From positions 2,224-66,223 of the forward strand of contig URBX01000003.1 of NCBI GenBank assembly GCA_900546175.1: a DNA stretch of 64,000 nt. Reading direction: 5' to 3'. The position numbers and the translations under genes were made by a program. Every line of letters starts with the position of its first letter. Position 1 is the stretch's first letter. The stretch is from an uncultured Eggerthella sp. Its GTDB lineage: Bacteria; Actinomycetota; Coriobacteriia; Coriobacteriales; Eggerthellaceae. The notes under the pieces are model-generated. The model did no database searches and was not told where the DNA came from. It saw only the letters and a list, made by a program, of their open reading frames with translations. Positions 4,583 to 24,788 of this stretch are shown here, piece by piece.

Positions 4583-4591
4583 GAGAGAAGC

Positions 4592-5164: not shown

Positions 5165-5403
5165 CAAAATACAGCCGCCGGAATTGGCGTTCCAGCGGCT
5201 GTGGGCGGCATGCAAATGCACACCACGTAGCAATGGTATTTTGCCATGCCGCTCATCAAATCCTTTCGTAAATAAACAAATTTTCGATGAGAAAGCATGG
5301 TGTACCCATGATTAACTGCAACTTGTCGCCCAAGAGCGTCTGCGACCTGTGCTGTGGCACGGGCAGTATCCTCCTCTCTTTCAGGGAAGGAGGTGATTGC
5401 TAG

Positions 5404-6560: not shown

Positions 6561-6904
6561 ACTGTCCTGAATGCAACGCTTCGACCATTTCTAAAATCGA
6601 GGGATCGAGCCTCGTTATCGAATGCGCAGAGTGCGGTTGGTCAATCGCAACCAGTCACATCGATCCGATCTACGAGGACGAGACGATTTACCTCGTTCAT
6701 GTAGGATTCAACAAGAACCCAAGCAAAGAGGCCCTCAAGGCTGTAGCGCGTATCACTGGAGGAAACTTCATCTCCGCAAAGCGCCTTCTCGAAACTCCAG
6801 GCTCAAAGCTAATCGAAGGAAAGGCTCCTGTAGTCAAGAAGTGCCTTGAAGACCTTACGGCCGCTGGCGTCAGTTTTGAGGTGAATCCCGAATTCCTCTT
6901 TTAG
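6557..6904 (+). CDS. Zn-ribbon protein with a ribosomal L7/L12 C-terminal-domain-like module
   Basis: N-terminal CPEC...CAEC zinc ribbon; the C-terminus LKAVARITGGNFISAKRLLETPGSKLIEGKAPVVKKCLEDLTAAGVSFEV aligns residue-by-residue in pattern with the L7/L12 CTD ([53 protein letters not shown]); its ATG overlaps the previous stop (ATGA). Confidence 0.6.
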   Translation: MNCPECNASTISKIEGSSLVIECAECGWSIATSHIDPIYEDETIYLVHVGFNKNPSKEALKAVARITGGNFISAKRLLETPGSKLIEGKAPVVKKCLEDLTAAGVSFEVNPEFLF

Positions 6905-6959
6905 CAGAGGCGTGTGATTTTTCGGTGTTGGGCCGCTGATGCTGTATGCGCCAGCGGCC

Positions 6960-7160
6960 CAGCCTCTCACAGCTTATTTCTTTTTGAATTTAAACTCGTG
7001 ACTCACAGTGACTCACAAAAATGTCTCGGTTGACCCAAAAAACCGTGACCCAAATTTGACCACAGCCAAACGTCAATTTTTGAGACTGAGCGTAAATAGG
7101 ATCATCTAGAACAAACTGCGATAAACTGGAGCAAACTGGAGAGAGTTTTTTACTATTGAG
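6960..7160. repeat. Non-coding region with short direct repeats
   Basis: GTGACTCACA x2 in tandem (about 6998-7017), several TGACCCA copies, AAACTGGAG x3 (7117-7143); no credible ORF between 6905 and 7750. Confidence 0.4.
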
Positions 7161-7753
7161 TGGGAATAATACACCATAAAAAGTGTATTAGTTATCTCCA
7201 GTGAATTGAGGTTTTCTAGAGCGTGATTTAGTTCATCCAGCTTGCGTTAAGCAGGTACAATCCGAAGGAAAACTGCAGTTCAGATACATAAAATGCTAGG
7301 TAGTTTCATATTTCTACCTAGCCTTTGTTTTGCTCCGTAACCGTATCAAATTCTACATGTTGGTTCTATACGGCTACGAATCTGGTAAGCGTTTCTGGCT
7401 TGGGGCACCTGCACGGAATCACGCAAATGGAGTACGTGCTCTGCTCGTGCTCTACGCTCGTTTCGCTGGATTTCCGTGGCATGGGGCCTGGAGAACGGTT
7501 GAATCTAAAGATGACATTCGGCGCTTGTACGTCGCTTGAGCGGATCCTGATTGATGCCGATTGGATACTGCTTACGCTGAGCGACAAGTATGTGACGTTC
7601 CACAACTGCTCATGCCTTGTAGGCGGCAACGAAACGACGTACTCCAGAAGCAGGATCTCGAGCAATTGCATGAGGATTGACATCGAGGGACAGGCGGGTT
7701 ATCTGACTGCGAAGTGGTATGAAAACGCCCCTCCCGATTGGGAGGGACATGGG

Positions 7754-8704
7754 CTAGAACTCGATGTCAATCTTAAAGAACTGACGTTGCTCGTTTTTGA
7801 ATTCTCCCTTGATGTCTACGTTAGCTTCGGCATCAAGCTTTTCGAGTACAGCGTTCACCTTTGCTGCTGCGTTTGCGGTCATGCTGGCATTTGAGCTGTT
7901 CTTGATCACCCTGTGATACTCATGAATCTTGTTGTCGCTCTCTTCGTCACACCTTGCACGTACGAGCTGCGTGATCTCTGCGCTTTCCGCATACCACTTC
8001 AGCTTCGGTTCGACAGGCGTACTACTGCCCTTGAACGACTGGGAAACTACAGCCTTCTTCTCAACGACCTTTAGGGCCTCGGCACTCATCTCTCCAGTCT
8101 CGGAGCAGTTGATGTCTACCTCCTTGGCTTCCGCCTTGGCCTTACGGGCGAGTCCGCCTTTGCCGACCTTAACCTTCTTTGCATATTCATAGGTCTCGAT
8201 GGTGCACTTCTTAGCGCCGAGCGAGTAAGCAATCTCGAACAACTCTGCGCGTCTTTCATCTTGCATGGTGTCAAAGAACTTGTCTATGTTGACGTAGCGC
8301 GTTCCGAACTTGTCTACATAGTAAATCGACCAGCTTTCGGCATGAGGGTAGAACTGAATGCCGCTTCGTTCCACTTCTCTTTCGTAGAGGTGGAGAACGG
8401 TTACGCCAGCGGCCCTGCTAATCCAGCCGATAGCTCCCTCCATAACATCAACGCTTTCCCTTGAGCCGTTGTCTACAATGGTGATCAGCTTGGGCATTTG
8501 GAAGTTAGGGGCTTCAAAATCTGTGCGGCTGATCGGGTTGTAGTACCTCTTCTTAGCCTTCATTAGCTCGCCGGATGCGCCTTCCGCGACGTTGTGCGCG
8601 GTGTTGGAAGCCAACTCAACGGCGCGACCGCTAATCTCTTTCGTTTTTTCAGCGGCTCTTGAGGCGGACTTCCTGATAATATTGCTGGGATTCTCTTTCG
8701 CCAT
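7754..8704 (-). CDS. Hypothetical protein (316 aa), no recognisable domain
   Basis: Long ORF with lower GC than its flanks, opposite strand to its neighbours, Lys/Glu-rich central region. Confidence 0.5.
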   Translation of the reverse strand: MAKENPSNIIRKSASRAAEKTKEISGRAVELASNTAHNVAEGASGELMKAKKRYYNPISRTDFEAPNFQMPKLITIVDNGSRESVDVMEGAIGWISRAAGVTVLHLYEREVERSGIQFYPHAESWSIYYVDKFGTRYVNIDKFFDTMQDERRAELFEIAYSLGAKKCTIETYEYAKKVKVGKGGLARKAKAEAKEVDINCSETGEMSAEALKVVEKKAVVSQSFKGSSTPVEPKLKWYAESAEITQLVRARCDEESDNKIHEYHRVIKNSSNASMTANAAAKVNAVLEKLDAEANVDIKGEFKNEQRQFFKIDIEF

Positions 8705-9186: not shown

Positions 9187-9396
9187 ATGAGCTACAAGGA
9201 ACTGATCAAGAGCGGCGCCGACGCGACCGACATCCAGCAATATCTGGTTGATGGCGAGATGACCGCCATCACCATCCGCATCCCGAAGAATCTTCGGGAT
9301 AGCGCTAAAGAAGCCGCAGAGCTTCGTGGAATGAGCTTCAGCACGTTGATCCGCAAGTGCATGATTGACGAGCTTTCGAATATCGAGAGGGGCTAG
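9187..9396 (+). CDS. Small ribbon-helix-helix (CopG/Arc-like) protein upstream of hsdM
   Basis: ITIRIPKNLRDSAKEAAELRGMSFSTLIRKCMIDEL: beta-strand plus two helices typical of RHH DNA-binding proteins; its stop is 1 nt before the hsdM ATG. Confidence 0.5.
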   Translation: MSYKELIKSGADATDIQQYLVDGEMTAITIRIPKNLRDSAKEAAELRGMSFSTLIRKCMIDELSNIERG

Positions 9397-9397
9397 C

Positions 9398-10978
9398 ATG
9401 GCTGACACCACTAAGGAACAGCAGCGCGCCGAGCTGCACAAAACAATCTGGTCCATCGCCGACGACTTGCGCGGCAGCGTGGACGGTTGGGACTTCAAGC
9501 AATACATCCTATGCACGCTCTTCTACCGCTTCGTGAGCGAGAACCTTTGCGCCTACCTTGCCGAGCAGGAAGGTGACCCCTCCTTCGACTACGCTTCCAT
9601 GCCTGACGACCAAGCCGAGTGGGGTCGCGAGGAGACCGTCAAGGAGAAAGGTTTCTTCATCCTTCCCAGCGAGCTATTCTGCAACATCCTCAAGCGCGTG
9701 GACAAGGACGGCATGCGCCTGACCGAGGATGGGCAGGACCTCAACGAGCTGCTGACCCAGGTATTTAAGAATATCGAGGGTTCTGCTGTTGGCACGGAGT
9801 CTGAGGGCGACCTCAAGGGCCTGTTCGACGACATGGACGTCAACAGCGCCAAGCTAGGCAACTCGGTCATCGAGCGCAACAAGAAGCTGGTGAAGCTCAT
9901 CTCCAAGATCGGCTCGCTGGACTTCGGCGGTGCCTTCCAGGACAACTCCATCGACGCCTTCGGCGACGCCTACGAGTTCCTCATGACCATGTACGCCTCC
10001 AACGCCGGCAAGTCCGGTGGCGAGTTCTTCACCCCGCAGGAGGTGGGCGAGCTTTTGGCGCGTATTGCCATCGGCGATCGCAAGAGCGTGAACAAGGTAT
10101 ACGACCCTTGCTGCGGCAGCGGTGGCCTGCTGTTGAAGTTTGCAAAGATCCTGGGCAAGGAAAACGTGCGCGGCGGATACTTTGGCCAGGAGATCAACCT
10201 GACCACCTACAACCTTGCCCGCATCAATATGTTCCTGCACGACGTGAACTTCGATAAGTTCGATATTGCGTTGGGCGATACACTCAAGGAGCCCGCCCAT
10301 TGGGACGATGAGCCATTTGATGCCATTGTTTCGAATCCGCCCTACTCCATCAAGTGGGAAGGCAAGGGCAACCCCCTCAACATCAACGACGCTCGCTTCA
10401 GTCCCGCAGGAGTTTTGGCGCCCGCCAGCAAGGCGGACCTAGCCTTCACCATGCACATGCTGAGCTGGCTTAGCACTGAGGGCACAGCCGCCATCGTCGA
10501 GTTCCCCGGCGTGCTCTACCGTGGAGGTGCCGAGGGTAAGATCCGCGATTATATGGTGCGCAACAACTTTGTCGAGGCGGTCATCCAGCTTCCGGCTGAC
10601 CTGTTCTTTGGTACCACCATTGCTACTTGCATCATCGTGCTTAAGAAGAACAAGAACGCAAGCAATGTGCTGTTCATCGACGCCAGCGAGCAGTTCGAGC
10701 GCCGCGACTCCAAGAACAAGCTGATGCCCGCTAACATCGACCGCATCATGGACGCAATCGCTGCGCGCGCAGAGGAGGATCACTTCTCCAAGCTGGTTTC
10801 CAATGACGAGATCTTGACAAACGACGCCAACCTGTCCGTTAGCTCTTACGTCGAGAAGAAGGACGAACGCGAGGAAATCGATATCGCCGAGCTCAATGCA
10901 GAAATCAAACGCATCGTAGCGCGTGAGCAGGAACTGCGCGAAAAAATTGACGCCATCGTGGCCAACTTGGAAGGCTAG
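9398..10978 (+). CDS. hsdM: Type I restriction-modification system, DNA methyltransferase subunit M
   Basis: N6-adenine MTase motif I DPCCGSGGLL and motif IV NPPYSIKW; HsdM N-terminal domain; start chosen at MADTTKEQQ with RBS GAGAGGGG. Confidence 0.92.
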   Translation: MADTTKEQQRAELHKTIWSIADDLRGSVDGWDFKQYILCTLFYRFVSENLCAYLAEQEGDPSFDYASMPDDQAEWGREETVKEKGFFILPSELFCNILKRVDKDGMRLTEDGQDLNELLTQVFKNIEGSAVGTESEGDLKGLFDDMDVNSAKLGNSVIERNKKLVKLISKIGSLDFGGAFQDNSIDAFGDAYEFLMTMYASNAGKSGGEFFTPQEVGELLARIAIGDRKSVNKVYDPCCGSGGLLLKFAKILGKENVRGGYFGQEINLTTYNLARINMFLHDVNFDKFDIALGDTLKEPAHWDDEPFDAIVSNPPYSIKWEGKGNPLNINDARFSPAGVLAPASKADLAFTMHMLSWLSTEGTAAIVEFPGVLYRGGAEGKIRDYMVRNNFVEAVIQLPADLFFGTTIATCIIVLKKNKNASNVLFIDASEQFERRDSKNKLMPANIDRIMDAIAARAEEDHFSKLVSNDEILTNDANLSVSSYVEKKDEREEIDIAELNAEIKRIVAREQELREKIDAIVANLEG

Positions 10979-10983
10979 TCAAA

Positions 10984-11796
10984 ATGGGAAATAAAGAAAC
11001 GCAGGCAGCTCACGAGCTAGCTATCCTCAACCATCTTAAACAGCTTTTATGCGAAGGATACAATCTGAAGCATTATTTTGCCTGCTCTCAAGATGATGTT
11101 GAATCCATCAAGGCGGCTCTTCTTTCGGCTGAACAGAATCAAGAAACCACTTTTCCTGATTTCTCTGCTGAGGCTTGCTGCATTGAGCTATTTGCTATTT
11201 CGTCTTCTGAGCAAGGAAAGAAATGCGGACCGCTTCAATCAAAGCAAGATGGCGACCTTCAGAGGACAATTGCCAATGATGATGAAAGGACGGCATTGGC
11301 CAAAAACGGCCAGACTCGCGTTTACACCCAAGTTCATCCCCAGCATAGCTACGAACATCTTTCCCGATCTCTGAGGGAAAACTTCGGGAGTCATCTGAAT
11401 AGCTTACGTCGATCTAAAAATGAATATCTGACAAGGATTTTCGTAGTCGAATATCCAGAAACCGACCTTCACTGCTTTTTTAGTCCAGATTCTGATTTGA
11501 GGTACGAAGGTCTCTGTATGGGTGATTTTACTGCCGAGTATTCTAATGGAAGAGATAACGGATTATATCGCTTGAGCAGGGATAAAGAGAATCTTAACTG
11601 GCTTGGTGAATACGCTGATGAGGTTGATTACGTAATTTTCCACGGAGTGCATTCCGTGGAAGTGATAAACCTGCACAACGTGGGACAAATAACAGGATTC
11701 CTTCCATGGCGCATGCGTTCTTATCCGGCGATGGCTATAACATATGCAACCTCAATCTTTCTAGGGTCGTTCGAGAAAGGCTCAAATAATGAATAG
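10984..11796 (+). CDS. Unknown 270-aa protein embedded between hsdM and hsdS; candidate RM-associated accessory/defence gene
   Basis: Starts 5 nt after the hsdM stop and its stop overlaps the hsdS ATG (ATGAATAG); visibly lower GC than the flanking hsd genes; no Walker, HNH or other clear motif; weak R-x5-H (RENFGSH) noted. Confidence 0.6.
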   Translation: MGNKETQAAHELAILNHLKQLLCEGYNLKHYFACSQDDVESIKAALLSAEQNQETTFPDFSAEACCIELFAISSSEQGKKCGPLQSKQDGDLQRTIANDDERTALAKNGQTRVYTQVHPQHSYEHLSRSLRENFGSHLNSLRRSKNEYLTRIFVVEYPETDLHCFFSPDSDLRYEGLCMGDFTAEYSNGRDNGLYRLSRDKENLNWLGEYADEVDYVIFHGVHSVEVINLHNVGQITGFLPWRMRSYPAMAITYATSIFLGSFEKGSNNE

Positions 11797-12937
11797 CATT
11801 GAAGGACTAATCGAACGGCTCTGTCCTGATGGGGTGGAATATAAGCCCCTAAGATCTATTGCCAAGATAGTTGGAGGTAAGGACTACAAACACCTTGCTG
11901 CAGGAAGTGTGCCTGTATATGGAAGCGGTGGCGTGATGACCTATGTCGATACTGCCGCATACGATAAACCTTCTGTCTTGCTTCCGCGTAAGGGGTCAAT
12001 TTCAAACGTGTTCTATGTTGATGGGCCGTTTTGGAATGTTGATACGGTTTTTTATACAGAAATTGACGAGTCACAAATAATGCCAAGATTCTTCTTTCAC
12101 GTGATTCTTGCCGAGCATATTGAGAAGTTAAACACATCAAACGCAGCGCGCCCTGCTTTGACGAGAACAGTGTTAGATAAGATTCAAATCCCTGTTCCTC
12201 CTCTAGAAGTCCAAGAAGAGATAGTGCGAATTCTCGATACCTTTTCAGAGCTAGAAGCAGAGCTAGAAGCAGAGCTAGAAGCAGAGCTAGAGGCGCGCAA
12301 GGCGCAGTATGCCTACTACCGTAGCAATATCCTCGGCAGGTGCGCCGACAAGGTTGCTCTTGGAAGTATTTGCAAATCGGTTTGCTCTGGTGGGACACCC
12401 AACAAAAAGAATCCTGAATACTACGAGAACGCTACTATTCCTTGGCTTCGAACGCAGCAGGTTGCGTTCAATGAGATATTCGAGGTCGACTCCTTCATCT
12501 CTGAAGCCGGATTGAAGGGCTCTTCTGCAAAGTGGATTCCTGCTAATTGCGTGATTGTCGCAATCTCTGGAGCAACCGCTGGGCGATGCGCGATCAATAA
12601 GATTCCGCTAACGACAAACCAACACTGTCTGAACATGGAAATTGATGAAGCTGTTGCAGACTACAGGTATGTTTACCACTGCGTCTGCAATCAAAACGAG
12701 GAGCTTCTTTCAAAGAAAGAGGGTGCTCGCGGAGATTTGAATGCTTCGCGAATCAAGAGTCTCGAAATTCCTCTGCCTTCTCTGGAAGAGCAGCGTTCCA
12801 TTGTGGAGATACTCGACAATTTCGACAAACTTTGTGGAGATATCACGCAGGGTCTTCCCGCGGAAATCGAGGCGCGCCGCAAGCAGTATGCCTACTATCG
12901 CGACAAGCTCCTGACCTTCAAGGAGAAGAAAGCATGA
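11789..12937 (+). CDS. hsdS: Type I restriction-modification system, specificity subunit S
   Basis: Two target-recognition domains separated by a conserved central region; two repeated conserved segments (ELEARKAQYAYYRSNIL and EIEARRKQYAYYRDKLL) typical of the HsdS internal duplication. Confidence 0.9.
   Translation: MNSIEGLIERLCPDGVEYKPLRSIAKIVGGKDYKHLAAGSVPVYGSGGVMTYVDTAAYDKPSVLLPRKGSISNVFYVDGPFWNVDTVFYTEIDESQIMPRFFFHVILAEHIEKLNTSNAARPALTRTVLDKIQIPVPPLEVQEEIVRILDTFSELEAELEAELEAELEARKAQYAYYRSNILGRCADKVALGSICKSVCSGGTPNKKNPEYYENATIPWLRTQQVAFNEIFEVDSFISEAGLKGSSAKWIPANCVIVAISGATAGRCAINKIPLTTNQHCLNMEIDEAVADYRYVYHCVCNQNEELLSKKEGARGDLNASRIKSLEIPLPSLEEQRSIVEILDNFDKLCGDITQGLPAEIEARRKQYAYYRDKLLTFKEKKA
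12248..12295 (+). repeat. In-frame 12-bp tandem repeat (GAGCTAGAAGCA x3 plus GAGCTAGAGGCG) encoding ELEA x4 in the hsdS central conserved region
   Basis: Read directly from the sequence: SELEAELEAELEAELEARKAQYAYY. Confidence 0.85.
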
Positions 12938-15900
12938 GCGAATTCGAATACGGACATACGAAGGTTCCAGAGCCGCAGAATACCGCCTCGTTGGCGGATG
13001 ATTTGCCTAGCAACGTCGACTTTGACGTCATGGCTTTTGGCGGTCAGGCGACAGTCTGTTCCGCGCTGCCGAAGCAGCAGAAACGCTCAACATCGTATCA
13101 GTCAGAAGCCCAACTGGAGGACGCTTTCATAAAGCAGCTCTGCCGTCAGGGCTACGAGAGACTCGTCATCTCCAGCGAAGGTGACCTTATTGCCAACCTG
13201 CGTAGGCAGCTCGAGGCCTTGAACCGCATCTCCTTCTCCGACAAGGAGTGGTCCCGCCTGTTCAAGGGATGGATCGCCGCGGACAACGACGGCATCGTCG
13301 AGAAGACCCGCCGCATCCAGCGCGACCACGTCTACGCCCTGCAGATGGATGACGGATCCGTGCGCAACGTCTCCCTCATCGACAAGCGCAACGTGCACAA
13401 CAACCGCATGCAGGTGATGAACCAGTACACCCAGGAAGGGACCTACGAGAACCGCTACGACGTGACGGTACTGGTGAACGGCCTGCCGCTCGTGCACATC
13501 GAGCTCAAGCGCCGCGGCGTTGCCATCCAGGAGGCCTTCAACCAGATCGAGCGCTACCAGCGCGACAGCTTCTGGTCCGGCTGCGGCCTGTACGAGTACG
13601 TGCAGATCTTCGTTATCTCCAACGGAACCCACACCAAGTACTACTCCAACACCACGCGCTTTTCCGCCATCGGGGAGCGAGCCGGCAAGAAGACCCGCGG
13701 CAAGAAGACTTCCAACAGCTTCAAGTTCACCAGCTGGTGGGCCGATGCTGACAATATGCCCATCTTCGACCTGGTGCCCTTCACCGCCACCTTCTTCGCC
13801 AAGCACGCGCTGCTGAACATCCTCACGAAGTACTGCGTCTTCGACGTGGACGAGAAGCTACTAGTCATGCGCCCGTACCAGATCGTGGCCACCGAGCGCA
13901 TATTGAACCGCATCCTCATCAGCGAAAACGACAAGTCCATGCTGGGCACCCTGCGTGCCGGCGGCTACATCTGGCACAGCACGGGATCGGGAAAGACGCT
14001 CACCAGCTTCAAGACCGCACAGCTCGCCAGCCAGATGGCAGGCGTGGACAAGGTCATGTTCGTGGTGGACCGCAAGGACCTGGACTACCAGACCATGCGC
14101 GAGTACGACCGCTTCGAAAAGGGTGCTGTGGACGGCAGCGAGTCCACGGCCGTACTGTCCAGGCAGCTTGCCGACCCGGACTGCCGCATCCTGGTGACCA
14201 CCATCCAGAAGCTCTCCTGCTTCATCAAGAAGAACAATAAGCACGACGTCTATGCGCAGCACTGCGTCATCATCTTCGACGAGTGCCACCGTAGCCAGTT
14301 TGGCGACATGCACGTGGCCATAACCAGGCACTTCAAGAACTACCACCTGTTCGGCTTCACCGGCACGCCGATCTTTGCGGAAAACGCCAGCAGCGGCAAA
14401 GTGGCAAACTTGAGAACCACCGAGCAGGCCTTCGGCGACAAGCTGCACACCTACACCATCGTGGACGCCATACGCGACGAAAACGTGCTGCCGTTCAGGG
14501 TGGACTACATCAAGACCATCCGGGAGCGCGACCAGTACGAAGACCAGAAGGTCTACGACATCTACCGCGAGGGCGCCTACAAGGCAGCTGCTCGCGTGGA
14601 CCTGATTACCAACTACATCCTTGACCACTACGCTCAGAAGACCAAGCGCACGAGCAGCTACGACTTCAAGGGCCAGCGCGTCATGGGCTTCAACTCCATT
14701 TTCGCCACAGCCTCCATCGACATGGCGAAGGTGTACTATTCTGCCTTCAAGCGCATCCAGGCCGAGCGCGCCGGCGAGAAGCTGAAGGTTGCCCTCATCT
14801 ACAGCTTCGGCCCCAACGAGTCCGACGATGGCTGCGGCCTTCCTGATGAGAGCTTCGACGTGGCCAGCCTGGACACCCCGAGCCGCGACTTCCTGGAGGC
14901 CGCCATCGGCGACTACAACGCCATGTTCGCAACCAGTTTCGACACGAGCTCGCAGGGCTTTCAGAACTACTACAAGGACCTGTCGGACCGCATGAAGAAG
15001 CGCCAGGTGGATTTGACTATCGTGGTCAACATGTTCCTCACCGGCTTCGACGCTACCACCTTGAACACGCTCTGGGTGGACAAGGACCTCAAAGACCATG
15101 GCCTCATCCAGGCCTTCAGCCGTACCAACCGCATCCTCAACTCCGTAAAGACCTACGGAAACATCGTGTGCTTCCGCAACCTGGAGGACCGCGTGAGCCA
15201 CGCCATCAGCCTGTTCGGCGACAAGGAGGCGGGCGGCGTGGTGCTGCTCAAGCCCTATGCTGAGTACCTTGCCGAGTACAACGACCGCCTGGACCAGCTG
15301 CGAGAGCAGTTCCCGCTTGAGGCGATTCTTTCCGGTGCCGTCATCATGGGCGAGGAACAGCAGAAGGCGTTCATCCGGCTGTTCGGCGTGATCTTGCGCC
15401 TGCGCAACATCCTCACCGCCTTCGACGACTTTGCCGAGGACGATTCTCTGAGCCCGCGCGACGAGCAGGACTATCGCAGCGTCTACACCGATTTGTACCA
15501 GAAATGGCGCGGGGAGAAGGAGGACGCCACCATCATCAACGACGATCTCGTCTTCGAGATCGAGCTTCTGAAGCAGGTCGACATCAACATCGACTACATC
15601 TTGATGCTGGTGCAGAAGTACCACGACTCCAACTGCACCGACAAGGTAATCATTGGTGACATCGAACGCGCCATCTCCGCCAGCTACGAGCTGCGCAACA
15701 AGCGCGACCTCATCCATGCGTTCATGGACAGCCTTGTCTCCAGCAACGACGTCGCAGCCGACTGGGAGAAGTACGTGGCAGAAGCCAAGGAGCGCGAGCT
15801 CTCTGCGATCATCGCCGAGGAGGCCTTGGACGAGGCTGCTACACGCGAGCTGATGGCCAACGCCTTCGCTGACGGAGGAGTTCCCGAGAGCGGCACCGAG

Positions 15901-16026
15901 GTGGCAAACCTGATGACCAAGAAGCCGAGCCGATTCGCTCCGGCAAACGCATACGCAGACATGAAGGCCCGAGTGCTTGAACGCTTGAAAGGGTTCTTTG
16001 AGCGATTTAGTGGATTAGGGAAATAG
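12934..16026 (+). CDS. hsdR: Type I restriction-modification system, restriction endonuclease subunit R
   Basis: SF2 helicase motifs HSTGSGKTLTSF (Walker A) and IIFDECHRSQ (DEAH box); about 1030 aa; its ATG overlaps the hsdS stop (ATGA). Confidence 0.92.
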   Translation: MSEFEYGHTKVPEPQNTASLADDLPSNVDFDVMAFGGQATVCSALPKQQKRSTSYQSEAQLEDAFIKQLCRQGYERLVISSEGDLIANLRRQLEALNRISFSDKEWSRLFKGWIAADNDGIVEKTRRIQRDHVYALQMDDGSVRNVSLIDKRNVHNNRMQVMNQYTQEGTYENRYDVTVLVNGLPLVHIELKRRGVAIQEAFNQIERYQRDSFWSGCGLYEYVQIFVISNGTHTKYYSNTTRFSAIGERAGKKTRGKKTSNSFKFTSWWADADNMPIFDLVPFTATFFAKHALLNILTKYCVFDVDEKLLVMRPYQIVATERILNRILISENDKSMLGTLRAGGYIWHSTGSGKTLTSFKTAQLASQMAGVDKVMFVVDRKDLDYQTMREYDRFEKGAVDGSESTAVLSRQLADPDCRILVTTIQKLSCFIKKNNKHDVYAQHCVIIFDECHRSQFGDMHVAITRHFKNYHLFGFTGTPIFAENASSGKVANLRTTEQAFGDKLHTYTIVDAIRDENVLPFRVDYIKTIRERDQYEDQKVYDIYREGAYKAAARVDLITNYILDHYAQKTKRTSSYDFKGQRVMGFNSIFATASIDMAKVYYSAFKRIQAERAGEKLKVALIYSFGPNESDDGCGLPDESFDVASLDTPSRDFLEAAIGDYNAMFATSFDTSSQGFQNYYKDLSDRMKKRQVDLTIVVNMFLTGFDATTLNTLWVDKDLKDHGLIQAFSRTNRILNSVKTYGNIVCFRNLEDRVSHAISLFGDKEAGGVVLLKPYAEYLAEYNDRLDQLREQFPLEAILSGAVIMGEEQQKAFIRLFGVILRLRNILTAFDDFAEDDSLSPRDEQDYRSVYTDLYQKWRGEKEDATIINDDLVFEIELLKQVDINIDYILMLVQKYHDSNCTDKVIIGDIERAISASYELRNKRDLIHAFMDSLVSSNDVAADWEKYVAEAKERELSAIIAEEALDEAATRELMANAFADGGVPESGTEVANLMTKKPSRFAPANAYADMKARVLERLKGFFERFSGLGK

Positions 16027-16035
16027 AGAGCAAGA

Positions 16036-17847
16036 ATGAAAAACTGTTATAGCGTAACCACATATTCAGTCCAGTCCGTCCTGGGCTACATCAACGCCGG
16101 AGACATCGCAATCCCGGAGATCCAGCGTCCGTTCGTCTGGTCGAAGACCCAAGTCCGCGACCTCGTGGACTCCCTTTTCCGCGGATATCCAACCGGCTAC
16201 CTCATTACCTGGAAGAACCCGGACGTCAAGGTCAAGGGCGGTGGAACGGCCGAGGGAAAGAAAGTGCTTATCGACGGCCAGCAGCGTGTGACCGCCATCA
16301 TGGCCGCGCTTGCCGGACAGCAGGTTCTAAACGAGGATTACGAGCTCGGCCCTATCAAAATTGCATTCAACCCCCTCTATGACGGCGAGGACAGCCCGTT
16401 CGAGGTCCTGACTCCGATCATCGAGCGCGACACGAAATGGGTATCCGATATCTCCGAGCTCTTCCAGCCCGGAGCCAGCACGTTCAAGTTCATCACGGAG
16501 TACATCAAGGCCAATGAGGGCTGCGATGCCGACAAGGTCAGCGCGAGCATCGAAGAGCTCACATCCATCGCGATGCGCCAGCTCGGCGTCATCGAGATCG
16601 ACGCATCCTGCACGATTGACGAGGTCACCGACATCTTCATCCGCATCAACTCGAAGGGAGCGGTGCTCTCCCAGGCTGACTTCGCTATGTCCAAGATCGC
16701 CGCAGATGAGGCCCACGGCGGAAACATGCTGCGCAAGGCGATCGACTACTACTGCCACCTGGCGGTAAAGCCGGAATTTTGGTCAACCATCAGCGTGCAG
16801 GACCCCGACTACATGGCGAGCGAGTACGTTGCGAAGACCGAGTGGTTGAAGGACGACAAGGACGATATCTACGACCCCGATTACAACGACGTCCTGCGCG
16901 TCGCCTTTATGTACAAGTTCGGTCGAGGCAAGCTCGCAGACCTCGTCGCACTCCTCTCGGGACGAGACTTCGAGGCCCGCGACTACAAGGCTGAGATCGC
17001 CGACGAATCCTTCGCCAAGCTCCATGACGGCGTCCTGCGCTTCATGGACAAGAACAACTTCCAAGATTTCGTTCTTGCGTTGCGCTCGGCAGGTTTCGTG
17101 AGCCCATCGATCATTTACTCGAAGGGCGCGATTAACTTCGCGTACAACCTCTATCTCACGCTACGCGAGGATCCTTCCATTCCTTCAACCGACGTCAAGC
17201 GCTGGGTGCAGCGCTGGTACGTCATGTCCGTCCTGACGGGTCGCTACTCTGGTTCTTCAGAATCCGTCATGGATCGTGACATCAGGCGCATCTCCGAACA
17301 GGGATTCCTCTCTTTCTACGAGGAAGTTGCCCAGGCACAGCTTTCCGACACTTTCTGGGAGGTCAACCTTCCTCAGGCGCTGAACACCACCAGCACCCGT
17401 ACTGGTGCTTGGCTTGTGTATCTGGCGTCCCAGGTACGATCTGCGAACAATACACTGTTCACGAACGGCGTCAAGGTGAGCGATGTCGTTGCCACCATCG
17501 GCGACATTCATCACATCTTCCCAAAGAACTACCTAAAGAAGGAGCTTGACGCGCAGAAGGGCCTTTACAACCAGGTCGCGAACTACGCTTACCTCGAGAA
17601 GCGCATCAACATCAAAATCGCCGATAGGAGGCCGGGAGACTACTTCACCGAGGCGCTAGATGCCTGCAGCGCAGGTTCTACATACTTCGGCGACATCGCC
17701 AAGGTTGATGATCTGTATGCCAACATGGCCGAAAACTGCATTCCCGAAGATATCTTTGACATGGGAGCCGAGGACTACAGGGAGTTCCTCTCTAAGCGTC
17801 GTCAGCTTATGGCAGCTAAGATCAGGGATTATTTCAAGGGACTGTAG
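16036..17847 (+). CDS. DUF262 (ParB-like nuclease N-terminus) / DUF1524 (HNH-like C-terminus) protein, GmrSD-family Type IV modification-dependent restriction enzyme-like
   Basis: N-terminal IPEIQRPFVW and LIDGQQRVTAI (DGQQR motif of DUF262); C-terminal IGDIHHIFPKNYL (His-Me finger of DUF1524); 10 nt downstream of hsdR. Confidence 0.85.
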   Translation: MKNCYSVTTYSVQSVLGYINAGDIAIPEIQRPFVWSKTQVRDLVDSLFRGYPTGYLITWKNPDVKVKGGGTAEGKKVLIDGQQRVTAIMAALAGQQVLNEDYELGPIKIAFNPLYDGEDSPFEVLTPIIERDTKWVSDISELFQPGASTFKFITEYIKANEGCDADKVSASIEELTSIAMRQLGVIEIDASCTIDEVTDIFIRINSKGAVLSQADFAMSKIAADEAHGGNMLRKAIDYYCHLAVKPEFWSTISVQDPDYMASEYVAKTEWLKDDKDDIYDPDYNDVLRVAFMYKFGRGKLADLVALLSGRDFEARDYKAEIADESFAKLHDGVLRFMDKNNFQDFVLALRSAGFVSPSIIYSKGAINFAYNLYLTLREDPSIPSTDVKRWVQRWYVMSVLTGRYSGSSESVMDRDIRRISEQGFLSFYEEVAQAQLSDTFWEVNLPQALNTTSTRTGAWLVYLASQVRSANNTLFTNGVKVSDVVATIGDIHHIFPKNYLKKELDAQKGLYNQVANYAYLEKRINIKIADRRPGDYFTEALDACSAGSTYFGDIAKVDDLYANMAENCIPEDIFDMGAEDYREFLSKRRQLMAAKIRDYFKGL

Positions 17848-18568: not shown

Positions 18569-18620
18569 AGCGCTTCCGTCATAACAAGTGCAAACTGCTT
18601 AGCTTTTACCTCTTGGCTTT

Positions 18621-18678
18621 TGCTACCTATCCAAGCATAGATAGGTAGCGTTCGCCAGTGTCGGGAAGAATAACAATA
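18621..18678. repeat. Duplicated copy of the cysK 3' terminus (direct repeat partner of 21678-21733)
   Basis: ctatccaagcatagataGgtagcgttcgccagtgtcgggaagaataacaa versus ctatccaagcatagataGatagcgttcgccagtgtcgggaagaataacaa at the real cysK end; one mismatch over about 52 bp; on the minus strand it encodes ...ILPDTGERYLSMLG*. Confidence 0.75.
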
Positions 18679-18689
18679 CTATTGAGTTC

Positions 18690-19415
18690 TTATTTTTCTA
18701 GCACCTTGCAGATCTGATAGGCCATGTCCAGGTTCTTTGAGACATAGTTCATTGCGTCCACAAACTCCTGCTCGAAGAAGTTTTCGACCAATCTGCCAAA
18801 CAAACTGTCAGGACGATCATGCGTCACAAGATCAAGCATCTTTTCTTTGCCTACAGCTTCCTGCTGATGCGCTGCAAACTCTGCAATTCTCTCGGACTGC
18901 TTTTTAATATCTTCGCCCTTGTATTTTCCGTTAAGCTCCAGGCCTCTTCTGGATATAAGCCTCAATCCTGATATTCTAGTAATTATTGTTTCACGGTTTA
19001 GCTGACACTCTATGTGTTTTGCATACGGATGAGTTGTTTTGATATGCACGATGATGTTGTAACGCCAGAACACCTTGTCGAAATCTTCCATTTTCAGGCT
19101 TTCCTGCATTGGTTCTCTGATTGCGAATTTATCAGGTTTTTCTGTCCAATATTCATCAACTTCCACATAGGCTTCTTTCACCTGATCGAAATCAACGATG
19201 TATGGATTCTTTGACTTGAAATCATCTTCAGGACCCTCAACAACAACAAAGCACTTGCGTCCTTCATCATAGATGAACTGCATGGCATCTGGAAATTCTT
19301 TCATTCCCAGGGCCGCGGTCATATCAAATTCGCTTTCCAATCTCTTGAGATTCTCCTCCTGAAAAGCTTTTTTCTCCTCTTTTCCTTTGCGCATGAAGTC
19401 AAAAAGTCCCATAGC
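18690..19415 (-). CDS. Hypothetical protein (about 241 aa)
   Basis: Start chosen at MGLFDFMRKGKEE with RBS AAGGAGGAG; no recognisable domain. Confidence 0.55.
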   Translation of the reverse strand, partial: AMGLFDFMRKGKEEKKAFQEENLKRLESEFDMTAALGMKEFPDAMQFIYDEGRKCFVVVEGPEDDFKSKNPYIVDFDQVKEAYVEVDEYWTEKPDKFAIREPMQESLKMEDFDKVFWRYNIIVHIKTTHPYAKHIECQLNRETIITRISGLRLISRRGLELNGKYKGEDIKKQSERIAEFAAHQQEAVGKEKMLDLVTHDRPDSLFGRLVENFFEQEFVDAMNYVSKNLDMAYQICKVLEK

Positions 19416-19581
19416 TGGTCTCCTCCTTAGTTGAGAAGATGTCTGCCTCTTTTTTGTAAGAGGCATTCAGCACTATCGACAGTATGACAGACCGAAGAAA
19501 TTATTGCATGATTTAGACACAGACATGATGCATTTTTTGTCATACTTCTCTCTATCACGGTTTTTTGCAAAGGAGGCATTC

Positions 19582-19899
19582 ATGGGATTGTTTGGCCTAT
19601 TCGGATCCAACATCAACAAGGACGTCGAAGAGTGCCGCGCCACTGAGGGCGCTGTATTAATTGATGTTCGCAATGAAGAAGAATATGAACAGGGGCACAT
19701 CCCTGGTGCTATCAATATTCCCCTGAGCACCATTGGTCTTGTTCTTGAGAAATACCCAAAAAAGGACATTCCGTTGTTCGTATATTGTCTCAGCGGAGGC
19801 CGCAGCGGACAGGCAGTAAGCTACCTCAAGCAGGCAGGTTACACCAATGTTAAAAACATCGGTGGCATAGGCAGCTATACAGGAAAGCTGGTGCGCTAG
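19582..19899 (+). CDS. Rhodanese-domain (sulfurtransferase-like) protein
   Basis: RBS AGGAGG plus ATG; active-site loop YCLSGGRSG; single rhodanese domain of about 105 aa. Confidence 0.8.
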   Translation: MGLFGLFGSNINKDVEECRATEGAVLIDVRNEEEYEQGHIPGAINIPLSTIGLVLEKYPKKDIPLFVYCLSGGRSGQAVSYLKQAGYTNVKNIGGIGSYTGKLVR

Positions 19900-19901
19900 T
19901 C

Positions 19902-21593
19902 ATGAAGATTGTCATTGTTGGTGGCGTAGCTGGTGGCGCATCTGCAGCAGCTCGTCTTCGCCGTCTTGATGAGCAAGCAGAAATCATCATCTTCGAAAAA
20001 TCAGGATTTGTATCCTATGCTAACTGCGGCCTGCCGTACTACATTGGCGGTATCATTACCGAGCAGTCAGCACTTACTCTGCAAACACCAGAAAGCTTCT
20101 GGAAGCGCTTTCATATCCAGGTTAAAGTCAATCACGAAGTCACTGCGATTAAACCAGAAAACCATACCGTGTCGGTTCGCAATCTAACAACAGGTGAAGA
20201 CTTCGTTGAAACGTACGACAAGCTAATCTTGTCCCCTGGAGCAAAGCCCACTCGGCCCCCACTGCCAGGCATTAATTCCAACAAAATATTCAGCTTGCGC
20301 ACCGTGGAGGACACTTTGCGCATCCATGACTATGTACAGGAGCATAAACCCCAAAGTGCGGTTTTGGTAGGCGGCGGCTATATTGGCATTGAAGTGGCGG
20401 AAAACCTTCGCGAATTAGGCATAAGCGTTACCATTGTTCAGCGTCCTTGTCAGCTGATGAACACTCTAGACTACGATATGGCCACCCTTGTCCATGCGGA
20501 AATGCGCCGCAAGGATATTACACTTAAGCTCGGTAGCAGCGTAATAGGCTTCCGAGAAGAAAACGACCAAATAATCACCGAACTTAAAAACGAGAGCGAA
20601 ATTCCAGCCGATTTAGTTCTGCTCGCTATTGGAGTTACTCCAGACACCGCTTTAGCGAAAAACGCTGGACTTAAATTAGGCATCAAGGAAAGCATTGTGG
20701 TGAATGACCGCATGGAGACTTCCATCCCTGACGTGTATGCAGTGGGTGACGCAGTGCAAGTCAAGCATCAAGTTACTGGCGAAGATGCCGTGATTTCCCT
20801 TGCGGGTCCCGCGAATAAGCAGGGTCGCATTGCTGCCGATACTATCTGCGGACAAGAAAGCCACTATCGTGGATCATTAGGTTCTTCCGTTATTAAGATT
20901 TTCGATCTTACGGTGGCCAGCACCGGCATGACAGAGAAGGCAGCAAAAGCGGCAAGAATTAACTATGACCGTGTCGTTCTGTCGCCTAGCTCCCATGCAG
21001 GATACTATCCAGGCGCTAAGCCAATGACCATGAAAGTAGTCTTCGAAAAAGAAACTCTTCGCCTACTAGGTGCCCAAATTATTGGTGCCGATGGCGTAGA
21101 CAAGCGCCTTGATGTATTGGCAACTGCTATCCAAGCAGGCATTCCTGCAGACAAACTGAAGGATCTTGATCTAGCCTACGCTCCTCCCTACTCTTCCGCT
21201 AAGGACCCCGTCAATATGGCCGGATTCATGATCGAAAACCTGCATGCTGGCTTAGTTAAACAATGGCATTGGGATCAGGAGCCTCTCTTGCCACGAGATG
21301 GCAGCGTTACTTTATTAGATACGCGCACCGCTGCAGAATACGAACGTGGCCACATTAACGGCTTTGTCAATATCCCCGTGGATGATTTGCGTGAGCGTTT
21401 GAGCGAAATCGAACTTGCGAAGCCGGTTTATGTAATCTGTCAAAGTGGCCTGCGCAGCTACATTGCTTGCCGAATCTTAAGCCAAAAAGGTTACGATTGC
21501 TACAACTTCTCTGGCGGATATCGCTTTTATGCCGCTGTTACCCAAGAAAAACAAGCCAGCGAGAATGTTTTTCCGTGCGGTATGGAACGCTAG
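19902..21593 (+). CDS. CoA-disulfide reductase / NADH oxidase family flavoprotein with a C-terminal rhodanese domain (CoADR-RHD)
   Basis: FAD motif IVIVGGVAGGASAA; redox-active Cys in SYANCGLPY; second dinucleotide motif VLVGGGYIGIEVA; C-terminal rhodanese with YVICQSGLRS. Confidence 0.85.
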   Translation: MKIVIVGGVAGGASAAARLRRLDEQAEIIIFEKSGFVSYANCGLPYYIGGIITEQSALTLQTPESFWKRFHIQVKVNHEVTAIKPENHTVSVRNLTTGEDFVETYDKLILSPGAKPTRPPLPGINSNKIFSLRTVEDTLRIHDYVQEHKPQSAVLVGGGYIGIEVAENLRELGISVTIVQRPCQLMNTLDYDMATLVHAEMRRKDITLKLGSSVIGFREENDQIITELKNESEIPADLVLLAIGVTPDTALAKNAGLKLGIKESIVVNDRMETSIPDVYAVGDAVQVKHQVTGEDAVISLAGPANKQGRIAADTICGQESHYRGSLGSSVIKIFDLTVASTGMTEKAAKAARINYDRVVLSPSSHAGYYPGAKPMTMKVVFEKETLRLLGAQIIGADGVDKRLDVLATAIQAGIPADKLKDLDLAYAPPYSSAKDPVNMAGFMIENLHAGLVKQWHWDQEPLLPRDGSVTLLDTRTAAEYERGHINGFVNIPVDDLRERLSEIELAKPVYVICQSGLRSYIACRILSQKGYDCYNFSGGYRFYAAVTQEKQASENVFPCGMER

Positions 21594-21677
21594 AGTTACG
21601 GCGCCTTACCTCTATAGGACGGAGGCTCCAGAAGCATGCTCGCTAGCTTTATCACGATGACAAGAATAGCGGCATCC

Positions 21678-21733
21678 TTACTACTATCCAAGCATAGATA
21701 GATAGCGTTCGCCAGTGTCGGGAAGAATAACAA
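21678..21733. repeat. cysK 3' terminus, direct repeat partner of 18621-18678
   Basis: See 18621-18678. Confidence 0.75.
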
Positions 21734-22589
21734 CAATATTCTTCCCGGCAAACTCGGGGAGTTCAGCCAACTTAGCACCTGCTACTGCGGCTGCACCAGC
21801 AGAAATACCTACGAAGATGCCTTGTTCATGACCGAGCTTCTTCTGGTACTCAAAAGCTTCCTCGGTGGATACGTGAATAATATCATCGTAAATATCCTGG
21901 TCGAGAATCTCAGGAATAAAGCCCGGCATGATTCCCTGAATCTTATGAGCACCGTTTGGCCCACCTTCCAAAACGCGTGACTCCTCAGGTTCTACCGCAT
22001 AAGCCTTCAAATTCGCATCCTGCTCCTTCAAGTACTTTCCGGCGCCGGACAAAGTTCCTCCTGTACCAACGCCCGCAACAAATGCAGCAATCTCGCCTTC
22101 GGTATCTCTCCAGATTTCAGGACCGGTGGTTTCGTAATGAATGCGAGCATTAACAGGATTTGCAAACTGACTTGGAGCAAAGCTGTTAGGTGTTTCAGCC
22201 AAAAGTTTAGCCGCTTCTTCATTTGCAAGAGGCACGCCACCATCAACAATACGAAGCTCAGCGCCATAAGCCTGAATAAGCTTGCGGCGTTCAACAGACA
22301 TACCCGCCGGCAAGAAGATGATAGTTTTTAGGCCATACGCTGCACCAATGAGAGCCAAGCCAATACCAGTATTGCCAGAAGTAGACTCAATAATAACGGT
22401 GTCCTTATTAATCTTGCCCGTTGCAATGCCGTCGTCGATGATTGCCTTTGCAATGCGATCTTTTACCGAGCCGCCAGGATTAGTGTACTCAAGCTTGCCA
22501 TAGACATTTGCCTTGTCGGAAACATTGAGCTTGATAAGCGGAGTGTTTCCAATAAGTTCGTCAATACGATTTAGCGCCTTTACCGTCAT
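21684..22589 (-). CDS. cysK: Cysteine synthase A (O-acetylserine sulfhydrylase), PLP-dependent
   Basis: GNTPLIKLN, GGSVKDRIA (PLP lysine), TSGNTGIGLA, and the C-terminus PDTGERYLS; start taken at the ATG of MTVKALN with RBS GAAAGGAAC. Confidence 0.9.
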   Translation of the reverse strand: MTVKALNRIDELIGNTPLIKLNVSDKANVYGKLEYTNPGGSVKDRIAKAIIDDGIATGKINKDTVIIESTSGNTGIGLALIGAAYGLKTIIFLPAGMSVERRKLIQAYGAELRIVDGGVPLANEEAAKLLAETPNSFAPSQFANPVNARIHYETTGPEIWRDTEGEIAAFVAGVGTGGTLSGAGKYLKEQDANLKAYAVEPEESRVLEGGPNGAHKIQGIMPGFIPEILDQDIYDDIIHVSTEEAFEYQKKLGHEQGIFVGISAGAAAVAGAKLAELPEFAGKNIVVILPDTGERYLSMLG

Positions 22590-22778: not shown

Positions 22779-23375
22779 CTAGCTAAAGTTCCACTTTACA
22801 CTTTCGATGCACTTCTTTACTCCCTCATCATTAAGGAGGTCAGCACCAACAATAGTAATAGCAACAGGCTTATCATCTACTACCGAAACGTACTGAATTC
22901 CGTCTTCGCCATTAACGGTCATGTGAGAAGCATAGTAGGTATACTCACCAATAGTTACTTCTTCGAGGTCCTCAAGAATGTTTGGATACTTAGCCTGATA
23001 AGCTGTTAAATCAGCACTGAGCATATCTTTCGTGTATGGCTGGCCAGCGGTAAAGATTGTAATACCTTCTGGTTCGTCAATAAACCAAATATCTCCTGAT
23101 TTATCTACCGTAACAAAGCAGATCATCTTATCAGAGGAAGGCTGATCGTTATTGGAAGGATGAGGCTTAGCAAAAGTAACCATTTCTGTCTTTGTGTCAA
23201 TAAAGGTCTTCAAGCCGTTTTCGTTGTATTCAGTAACTGAAACATAACCATTTGTTGATTTAACTGGCTCAGATGATTTGCTGCTACCACCGCATCCAGT
23301 AAGTACTACCGCTAAACATATGGCAAGGCAGCAAGTTAGCACTAGGAGCATTTTTTTTGTACGTACTAAGTTCAT
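22779..23375 (-). CDS. Lipoprotein, hypothetical
   Basis: MNLVRTKKMLLVLTCCLAICLAVVLTGCGGSS: signal peptide plus lipobox (LTGC); RBS GGAGG. Confidence 0.6.
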   Translation of the reverse strand: MNLVRTKKMLLVLTCCLAICLAVVLTGCGGSSKSSEPVKSTNGYVSVTEYNENGLKTFIDTKTEMVTFAKPHPSNNDQPSSDKMICFVTVDKSGDIWFIDEPEGITIFTAGQPYTKDMLSADLTAYQAKYPNILEDLEEVTIGEYTYYASHMTVNGEDGIQYVSVVDDKPVAITIVGADLLNDEGVKKCIESVKWNFS

Positions 23376-23534
23376 AATGGCCTCCAAAAAACCAAAACAA
23401 CACATTAAACGCATTGTCTCATTTGTTAGGCTTGTTCGGGCTCTTCGTTTCAAAATAATTCTTATTTCGATCGTATTTTTTTAACTATAGCTAGAATGAA
23501 GCATTGAAGATTTCAACAGTAAGGATTTTCATAT

Positions 23535-24788
23535 ATGACCAATAATTCGCAAAACACCAAAGCTAACTACACAACGGGCGGACACAAACTACCCGATAAC
23601 TGGCTTTCACGCATTGTCCTAATTTGGGGCGGCAACGCCTTGTCTGCCATTGCAGGTAGTGCGGCAAGCTTTGCAGGCATTTGGTATGTTACTGAATCTA
23701 CAGGATCCCCTTTATATATTGCCGCTTTATACGTACTCGCATTTCTTCCAATGGGACTCCTCTCCCCTTTCGGAGGCGTCATTGCTGATAAATACAACCG
23801 AAAAGCAATCATTATTATTTGTGACACCGTTCTTGCCTTGACGGGAATTGGCATTGCTGTCTGGATTGCTCTGCTAGGACCAAGCGTTGAATCAATAATG
23901 CTTTTCTGTGCATCCTGGGGCTTTGCTTCGGCTTTTCGCGGGCCAGCGTTTAATGCAACCATGCCATTTCTTGTTCCTGAACGACATTTAATAAGAATCA
24001 ACAGCTTAGATACGCTTTTAGGAAGCATCTCAATGATTGCTGCTCCCGCTCTTGGGATTCTGCTCTATACCGCATTCGGACTCCAAGCATCCATTGTGTT
24101 AGGAGGTTTTGGATCGCTTTGCGCCGTGCTCACCATGCTCCTAGCAAAGTTGCCAAAACTCACCACTGAAGAACAAACTGGCGTTGTAAAAAGTTTGAAA
24201 GAAGGCATTTTTGCTCTAGCCGAACAGAAAGGCCTTTTAGTTCTTACCATAGGAGTATCGTTGGGAATGTTTGCCTATGGTCCCCTTGATTCTCTCCTAC
24301 CATTGATGGTCAACAGTCAATTTGGTGGAGACGGATTTGCCGCATCACTGCTTGCTGCAATCATGGGAGCAGGAATGCTTGTTGGTGCCGTAGCACTCAT
24401 GGTAGTAAATCCAAAAACACGATTAGCTCACATTATTATTGGTGCTTCAATTATTGTTGGCGCTTGCGCATTTATAGCCGGCTTCATACCAAAAGATAAT
24501 TTCCCTCTGTTTGTCTTTGCTATTGGTGTGCTCGCAATTGCTTGTGCGTGGTTTAACGCTCCTTTGATGACGCTTTTACAGAAAAACATTCCCGAGGAAA
24601 AACTTGGGCGCGTTATGGGACTTTTTACCGCTATGACTGGCTTAGCTATTCCGCTAGGAACAGCAGTTGGTGGTGTTATTGCCGAAATAATTGGCACACC
24701 ACTCTTCTTCAGCGCAGACGGTATTTTCATTCTTCTGATTGGAGCGAGCATTGCGCTTTCAAAAGAAGTGAGAAAGCTCTCCCGCTAG
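23535..24788 (+). CDS. MFS transporter (about 12 TM, efflux type)
   Basis: 417 aa, hydrophobic throughout, MFS-like loop motif GGVIADKYNRK. Confidence 0.8.
   Translation: MTNNSQNTKANYTTGGHKLPDNWLSRIVLIWGGNALSAIAGSAASFAGIWYVTESTGSPLYIAALYVLAFLPMGLLSPFGGVIADKYNRKAIIIICDTVLALTGIGIAVWIALLGPSVESIMLFCASWGFASAFRGPAFNATMPFLVPERHLIRINSLDTLLGSISMIAAPALGILLYTAFGLQASIVLGGFGSLCAVLTMLLAKLPKLTTEEQTGVVKSLKEGIFALAEQKGLLVLTIGVSLGMFAYGPLDSLLPLMVNSQFGGDGFAASLLAAIMGAGMLVGAVALMVVNPKTRLAHIIIGASIIVGACAFIAGFIPKDNFPLFVFAIGVLAIACAWFNAPLMTLLQKNIPEEKLGRVMGLFTAMTGLAIPLGTAVGGVIAEIIGTPLFFSADGIFILLIGASIALSKEVRKLSR

Follow-up and report, generated by a model that had tools for sequence, protein, structure and literature searches.

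The stretch analysed here (the window: 64,000 nucleotides of contig URBX01000003.1, assembly GCA_900546175.1, from an uncultured Eggerthella sp.) carries the 3' end of cysK, the gene for cysteine synthase A, twice on the same strand and about 3 kb apart. One copy (copy B) belongs to the intact gene, and the other (copy A) is an orphan that lies beside a truncated peptidase gene. An earlier note on this DNA had offered two readings of the arrangement, an old integrative islet that has decayed and a rearrangement through duplication, and the origin of the orphan tail is our subject. The repeat copies and the genes between and beside them are as follows.

18079 to ~18598, minus strand: PepV/M20 dipeptidase pseudogene, C-terminal third only
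18599 to 18626, no strand: spacer (junction J2) of 28 nt, origin unassigned, from the copy A stop codon to the PepV remnant
18627 to 18683, minus strand: repeat copy A, the orphan cysK tail
18690 to 19412, minus strand: gene for a 240-aa protein with no family match, its stop codon 6 nt from copy A
19582 to 19899, plus strand: single-domain rhodanese, 105 aa
19902 to 21593, plus strand: CoADR-rhodanese fusion, 563 aa
21684 to 21740, minus strand: repeat copy B, the last 18 codons and the stop codon of the intact cysK
21684 to 22589, minus strand: cysK (cysteine synthase A), 301 aa, intact

The repeat and the genes it encloses

The direct repeat is 57 nt long and its copies lie 3,057 bp apart from start to start; the flanking of an approximately 3-kb segment by the cysK 3' end, as described in the earlier note, is borne out, with coordinates that were a few bases off. 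Copies A and B have three mismatches in 57 positions, one of them within the first 50, and no match of this length arose in 100 shuffles. The window holds no third copy, relaxed search included, and comparison of the two copies together with their flanks gave no significant homology past the 57 nt. Copy B begins exactly with the cysK stop codon (CTA on the plus strand, TAG on the minus strand), and its translation ends ...NIVVILPDTGERYLSMLG*. Copy A is positioned between two junctions, one at the 240-aa gene, whose stop codon it follows after 6 nt, and one at PepV, which is cut at about codon 310 and begins about 28 nt further on. Repeats are thus found at both ends of the segment, one of them restoring the 3' end of a would-be target gene, which is the hallmark of attachment (att) sites. 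Excision across the repeat would leave the body of cysK, then the tail, then GTAGCAAAAGCC, and the circle junction of the 3,057-bp unit would read ...GAAAAATAAGAACTC-AATATTGTT...GGATAG-TAGTAAGGATGCC.

The same structure recurs in independent assemblies (L001, L082/83) and, at 98% DNA identity, in a second strain (L089, Logan ERR11535044), and it is therefore not an assembly artefact. All contigs of the species (about six, covering the two strains) carry the filled arrangement, and exact-protein look-ups with cysK, CoADR and the 240-aa protein returned no arrangement other than the window's own. In a four-way alignment of both copies from both strains, copy A of the second strain has CAATATT, like cysK, and the one mismatch among the first 50 nt reflects a synonymous change that the window's cysK acquired later. 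The copies were therefore identical at 57 of 57 positions in the ancestor shared by the two strains, which means that the duplicate came from the lineage's own cysK and not from a diverged donor. Between the strains, copy A differs at 4 of 57 positions (7%), compared with 0.7-3% in genes and 4-8% in intergenic DNA, and it thus behaves as non-functional DNA does. The interval as a whole resembles its flanks in both guanine plus cytosine (GC) content and strain divergence.

Domain and profile searches supported the earlier account of the gene content between the copies (a hypothetical gene, a rhodanese and a CoADR-rhodanese fusion). cysK has a PALP domain and scores 370.2 bits with TIGR01139, above the cut-off of 350.95. 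The fusion contains Pyr_redox_2, Pyr_redox_dim and Rhodanese domains and scores 394.1 with PRK13512 (cut-off 394) and 533 with TIGR03385, under the cut-off of 578.8. The catalytic Cys42 and the rhodanese Cys513 are both present, and on its domains and these two cysteines the protein appears to match the CoA persulfide reductase type. The single-domain rhodanese is separated from it by a gap of 2 nt, and the two genes are probably co-transcribed. As a pair they match sulfide-stress genes of the CoA-persulfide-reductase type, known in Firmicutes from CoAPR of E. faecalis and CoADR-RHD of B. anthracis (PMC9405070), with which they share the Pyr_redox_2, dimerisation and C-terminal rhodanese domains, Cys42 and the rhodanese cysteine, and a single-domain rhodanese immediately upstream. 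Unlike the E. faecalis and B. anthracis systems, the pair has no CstR-type regulator adjacent to it, and unlike the usual cluster of gut anaerobes it has lost DUF134, rubredoxin and rubrerythrin.

The 240-aa protein had no match in Pfam, NCBIfam, PHROG or PADLOC. Its structural model is a confident one (predicted local distance difference test, pLDDT, 83.7; predicted template-modelling score, pTM, 0.80) and comprises an N-terminal helix, a beta domain and a long helical hairpin; a Foldseek search against the PDB gave a best E of 0.09 and no recombinase fold, and the protein is not a recombinase. The family to which it belongs is small (41 proteins, best identity 75%) and unannotated, with no member found in IMG/VR. 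Because the gene is well conserved between the strains (0.7% divergence), its product is probably functional. The homologues (L085-L088) are solitary genes in unrelated chromosomal contexts, and none of their loci shows a link to CoADR or cysK. The view that the three genes together form a persulfide or sulfur-stress module does not survive this comparison, since a gene never linked to CoADR or cysK elsewhere argues against a conserved module. The adjacency of cysK to the rhodanese and CoADR, which is found only in this species, is probably a by-product of rearrangement and not a designed module.

Two further observations concern these homologue loci. The M20 gene at one of them (L088) was considered as a counterpart of the PepV remnant and rejected, as the two are not homologous. 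In GCA_030535275.1, a metagenome-assembled genome (MAG) labelled Bacillota (L086), the 240-aa homologue (67% identity) lies about 6 kb from a trio of genes, 187-aa/GH3_M/GGDEF-HD (10745-14511), that occurs in the same order at 53-57.7 kb of the window (53000-57700); this genome may be a distant relative, or misclassified.

Relatives, the second strain and the resident rhodanese-CoADR pair

Two surveys were made, one of 80 genome loci with cysK, 17 of them from Coriobacteriia relatives (L002-L018), and one of 80 metagenome loci whose CoADR proteins come closest to the window's (67-75% identity). A Coriobacteriia MAG has a cysK that matches the window's at 95% protein identity; Coriobacteriia cysK proteins are 82-95% identical to it, at only about 75% identity in DNA. 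The empty site that had been proposed as a check, cysK followed directly by an intact M20 gene, was found in none of the 17 related cysK loci, which have zero neighbours in common with the window. No second cysK tail occurs at any other cysK locus among the 80, nor was the same repeat structure seen beside an intact peptidase in any relative. The cysK neighbourhood in Coriobacteriia is unusually fluid, with contexts in L002-L018 that are nearly all different and show little mutual synteny.

Only one syntenic relative was found, Anaerotardibacter sp. GCA_051878815.1 (L091), which shares with the window an anchor pair to the right of cysK.

22779 to 24788: anchor pair common to L091, consisting of lipoprotein p198 (22779-23375, minus strand) and a major facilitator superfamily (MFS) transporter (23535-24788, plus strand)

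The MFS transporter is 85% identical to an Anaerotardibacter MAG protein. Together with the cysK match, this marks the organism as a human-gut bacterium of Eggerthellaceae type. In L091, the order is MFS, lipoprotein p199, DUF454, a small open reading frame (ORF), DUF134, rhodanese, CoADR-rhodanese, a rubredoxin-type protein and rubrerythrin, so that the rhodanese and CoADR-rhodanese lie about 2 kb from the same lipoprotein-MFS pair; the locus has no cysK, no 240-aa gene and no PepV. Relative to p198 and MFS the rhodanese-CoADR pair is inverted in the window, as BLAST aligns L091 5077-7005 to window 21587-19660. The order DUF134-(rhodanese)-CoADR-rubredoxin-rubrerythrin is wholly or partly kept in many of the 80 CoADR loci, in hosts of 33-65% GC, and none of these loci has cysK, the 240-aa gene, p198, MFS or PepV nearby. 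The window holds no remnants of DUF134, rubredoxin or rubrerythrin. Since the pair stands by the same anchor genes in L091, it appears to be a resident of this neighbourhood that was inverted and lost its partners in the window's lineage, and not an import into the cysK-PepV junction. The cargo of an integrative element would be foreign to its neighbourhood, and here it is not. A metagenome scan with lipoprotein p198 was empty, and MFS homologues at 69-71% identity (L092, L094, L176) are in no case syntenic.

The wider redox cluster, DUF134-(rhodanese)-CoADR-RHD-rubredoxin-rubrerythrin, is present at L091 3221-7889 and in L105-L112, L114, L115, L120 and others. The rubrerythrins of two contigs with this cluster, one of 45% and one of 35% GC, are 92% identical, and such identity across differing GC content suggests that this redox and sulfur stress cluster spread horizontally among gut anaerobes.

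The left flank of the repeat is occupied by the PepV remnant and, beyond it, by a defence island.

9365 to 17847, plus strand: defence island, comprising a type I restriction-modification (R-M) system (hsdM, a 270-aa gene without assignment, hsdS and hsdR) and GmrSD

The PepV remnant matches positions 311-464 of the 466 in NF005591 (E 5e-21); it is without about 310 N-terminal residues, and its catalytic and lid domains are not complete. It also has a frameshift, caused by an extra C at 18272. The truncated M20 peptidase of the earlier note is thereby confirmed, as is its position, with the outer repeat copy abutting it at a rearrangement junction across the 28-nt spacer. Only a single relative of the remnant was found (P0063, L090), itself a fragment in an unrelated context. 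The host DNA has a GC content of about 43%, compared with 55-59% in the block left of about 17.85 kb that holds the type I R-M system and the GmrSD-type nuclease. The second strain is 98% identical to the window from 18204 rightwards, and its left side (L089 1-8230) is a different island with another type I R-M system, GmrSD, 8xMP and ThsB-TIR. Homology between the strains breaks at window 18204, within the PepV remnant. This swap of islands with a breakpoint inside PepV indicates that the left flank is a strain-variable defence-island hotspot, with a PepV pseudogene that appears to be eroding from both ends; as the extra C at 18272 is absent from the second strain, decay of PepV continued after the strains split.

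Origin of the orphan cysK tail

Both ends of the repeat coincide with inverted repeats.

21719 to 21747, no strand: perfect palindrome with 11-bp arms and a 7-bp spacer (11-7-11), CGGGAAGAATA-ACAACAA-TATTCTTCCCG, inside cysK
18622 to 18649, no strand: copy A hairpin with a perfect 10-bp stem and an 8-nt loop, which takes in the outer end of the copy

Position 21740, where the repeat ends on its inner side, falls in the right arm of the 11-7-11 palindrome, for which the DNA fold has z = -4.5. Perfect stems of at least 11 bp occur at 4 loci in the window, against 0.1 expected by chance. The palindrome originates in mutually complementary AT-rich codons of GKNI-VV-ILP (peptide GKNIVVILP); it is absent from GC-rich relatives, and the second strain retains 9 of 11 pairs. 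With its 11-bp arms, 7-bp spacer and a repeat boundary inside, it has the layout of a tyrosine-recombinase core, in architecture only. At the outer end, the tail has a 5-bp inverted repeat of its own, CTATC...GATAG, that includes the stop codon. In copy A, the 5 flanking bases GCTAC lengthen this 5-bp stem to 10 bp, compared with 5 bp only in copy B, and the sense-strand flank GTAGC is complementary to GCTAC in the tail. Loci like the two end hairpins number about 10 in 64 kb. The features of a template-switch junction, that is, breakpoints at inverted repeats and bases templated by the opposite arm, are both present, with a signature that is short at 5 nt. The outer hairpin could account for the end of identity at the stop codon without recourse to function, and it is reminiscent of snap-back templated synthesis, a resemblance that is suggestive only.

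The search for mobility genes was negative. No tested ORF across the window had a Pfam match to an integrase or transposase, in agreement with the earlier note. When the 3.2-kb interval was compared with plasmids and phages by BLAST, only distant CoADR or cysK matches came up, and scans of IMG/VR for the repeat and the palindrome were empty. The proposed search for the cassette elsewhere together with an integrase thus found nothing similar on plasmids, in phages or in IMG/VR, and no related element with the same att specificity was present in these or among 160 related loci.

We put at roughly 0.5 the probability that copy A is the scar of a local template switch or duplication-deletion at the edge of a variable defence island and not an att site. 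Of the two origins raised in the earlier note, rearrangement is the one that the evidence favours, while the islet is weakened by a cargo that is resident in L091, inverted here, and without cysK there. In an ancestor of the species, a replication or repair strand would have left the 3' flank of the 240-aa gene, changed template into the cysK tail at the 11-7-11 palindrome and copied 57 nt as far as the stop codon. A fold-back on the small CTATC/GATAG hairpin may then have added GTAGC before synthesis restarted in the middle of PepV with deletion of the DNA in between. A 3-kb tandem duplication followed by loss of nearly the whole second copy would be an equivalent route. In the same stretch, rhodanese-CoADR was also inverted, the DUF134 and rubredoxin/rubrerythrin genes that flanked it were lost, and the adjacent defence island was replaced repeatedly. 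We infer the order of events and the template-switch steps; the layout of the locus, a hairpin at either end, a rhodanese-CoADR pair that is resident and inverted, and the lack of a Pfam recombinase match are shown by the data. Local rearrangement is favoured because it accounts for the identical copies, both hairpins, the two junctions round copy A and the truncated PepV, as well as for a resident, inverted cargo, the lack of a recombinase and the lack of any other instance. A tandem-inversion-duplication model was rejected, as it needed too many extra deletions.

Palindromes and quasi-palindromes are established hotspots of template switching and breakage (PMC7202029, PMC7999016). The locus resembles hairpin template switching and remodelled tandem duplications in that its breakpoints lie at inverted repeats and a few templated bases perfect the junction hairpin, and it resembles replication-based junctions in that a short copy of a nearby locus stands at a deletion junction, in an unstable region with an inversion. 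It is unlike the classical bacterial examples of template switching, which are point-like mutations or large tandem inversion duplications from the laboratory, in that a fixed 57-nt orphan copy lies 3 kb from its source and the events themselves are reconstructed.

Several points weigh against a local rearrangement. The snap-back signature of 5 nt is short, and in the second strain it amounts to 4 nt and a wobble pair; the same bases also make up a 7-nt TAGTAAA match downstream of cysK, with a 1-nt offset. Bacterial examples of templated insertion at a deletion junction are, to our knowledge, poorly documented. An 11-bp inverted repeat round a 7-bp spacer also has the look of a tyrosine-recombinase core, and a repeat that restores the 3' end of a gene is a classic att signature. 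Moreover, the window's CoADR is no closer to L091 than to unrelated higher-GC contigs (73-75% in each case), and the rhodanese is closer to higher-GC contigs (72-73%) than to L091 (54%), so that orthology with the L091 pair is not proven. As there is a single syntenic outgroup, the ancestral order is not polarised with confidence.

A decayed integrative islet would have integrated at a core site in the cysK tail while carrying a tail of its own, its integrase being later lost or acting in trans. Direct repeats of which one restores the target gene through its stop codon would be expected of such an islet, and an identity block that ends at a perfect 11-7-11 palindrome of core architecture, the retention of AATA, spacer and full distal arm on the copy A side, and a location in a hotspot of foreign DNA all speak for it. 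Cis-mobilizable elements (CIMEs) are a described class of this kind, decayed integrative and conjugative or integrative and mobilizable elements (ICEs or IMEs) that have no integrase but still carry attL and attR at the target gene's 3' end (PMC5704250). The locus is like a CIME in that a small segment without an integrase lies between repeats, one of which forms the functional 3' end of a protein gene, and a palindromic core-like site stands at the end of the block; it differs in that no parental ICE or IME or matching recombinase was found, the cargo is resident in a sister species and the distal flank is the junction of a truncated pseudogene. With rhodanese-CoADR in the same neighbourhood of L091, independent arrival within about 3 kb would be very unlikely, and on the islet reading the lineage must have lost its sulfide-stress genes and later acquired them again in the same place. 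The tested ORFs offer no Pfam recombinase, and the 240-aa gene is solitary and chromosomal elsewhere and is not a recombinase candidate. A parental element, an attP and a second instance are all absent from the 80 cysK loci, the 80 CoADR loci, plasmids, phages and IMG/VR. The supposedly original flank downstream of cysK would itself be a truncated-gene junction 28 nt off, the palindrome stems from AT-rich codon choice, is missing from relatives and is decaying in the second strain, and the hairpin at the outer junction is left unexplained. On balance we regard such an islet as unlikely. Its bolder form, in which the 3,057-bp segment is mobilised in trans by a recombinase from elsewhere that recognises the 11-7-11 palindrome within the final 60 nt of cysK, and so spreads persulfide-detoxification genes among gut Coriobacteriia, seems to us very unlikely; if it were true, cysK would join the protein genes used as integration targets, and a route for spreading sulfide-stress genes would be at hand.

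The repeat could also have arisen by homology-facilitated illegitimate recombination, in which linear DNA from a conspecific or close strain, with the order cysK-CoADR-rhodanese-240-aa gene, recombined homologously in cysK and illegitimately at its other end, 57 nt upstream of the recipient's stop codon, leaving the recipient's tail as copy A. This would give an exact direct duplicate of the end of the anchor gene and one sharp illegitimate junction, and donors with other arrangements are plausible, as gene order varies greatly among relatives and the window's rhodanese is closer to other lineages than to L091. However, donor and recipient tails would have to match at 57 of 57 positions, synonymous sites included, the donor arrangement was not found among the loci of the cysK and CoADR sets, and strain divergence in the interval equals that of the flanks; the end of identity at the stop codon and the truncated PepV 28 nt beyond it would go unexplained. 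We consider this anchored acquisition quite unlikely. That copy A is a conserved functional element of the 240-aa gene, such as a terminator or a regulatory RNA or DNA site under selection, is extremely improbable: it is kept in both strains directly after the stop codon of that gene, but its divergence of 4/57 (7%) exceeds the 0.7-3% of genes, only 4 nt of one palindrome arm are kept, no terminator-like site is predicted there, and no other 240-aa homologue carries it.

The main value of a local rearrangement scar at this locus is one of caution, as a repeat that looks like attL and attR turns out, in comparative context, to enclose a resident cargo and to have hairpins at both ends. It would also show how, in nature, a complex rearrangement can leave a short templated duplicate at its junction, here beside a defence-island hotspot in a gut actinobacterium that is uncultured. 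The repeat is ordinary in kind and opens no long-standing question.

The defence island and the left end of the window

The islands of the two strains, otherwise unrelated, have in common a 170-nt stretch of 80% identity (window 6998-7165; L089 8058-8227). It lies at the island edge in L089 and 11 kb from the edge in the window, and it could be a terminal sequence of the island, with the R-M/GmrSD block inserted afterwards. Within that block, the hsdR ORF (12832-16026, plus strand, 1,064 aa) has full-length Pfam matches. The public gene calls (L082/L083) place two antisense ORFs there instead, at 13102-13806 and 13861-15717 on the minus strand (234 and 618 aa), which are without domains and are probably a gene-calling artefact of high-GC DNA.

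Further to the left, positions 1-8700 of the window are a mosaic of higher-GC segments. These encode an ABC ATPase fragment, MerR, an FMN reductase, a cupin and an alpha/beta hydrolase, together with an ImmA/IrrE-type M78 peptidase, DUF4417 and a fragment matching the C-terminus of phrog_29123, and the whole looks like more horizontally acquired or decayed mobile DNA.

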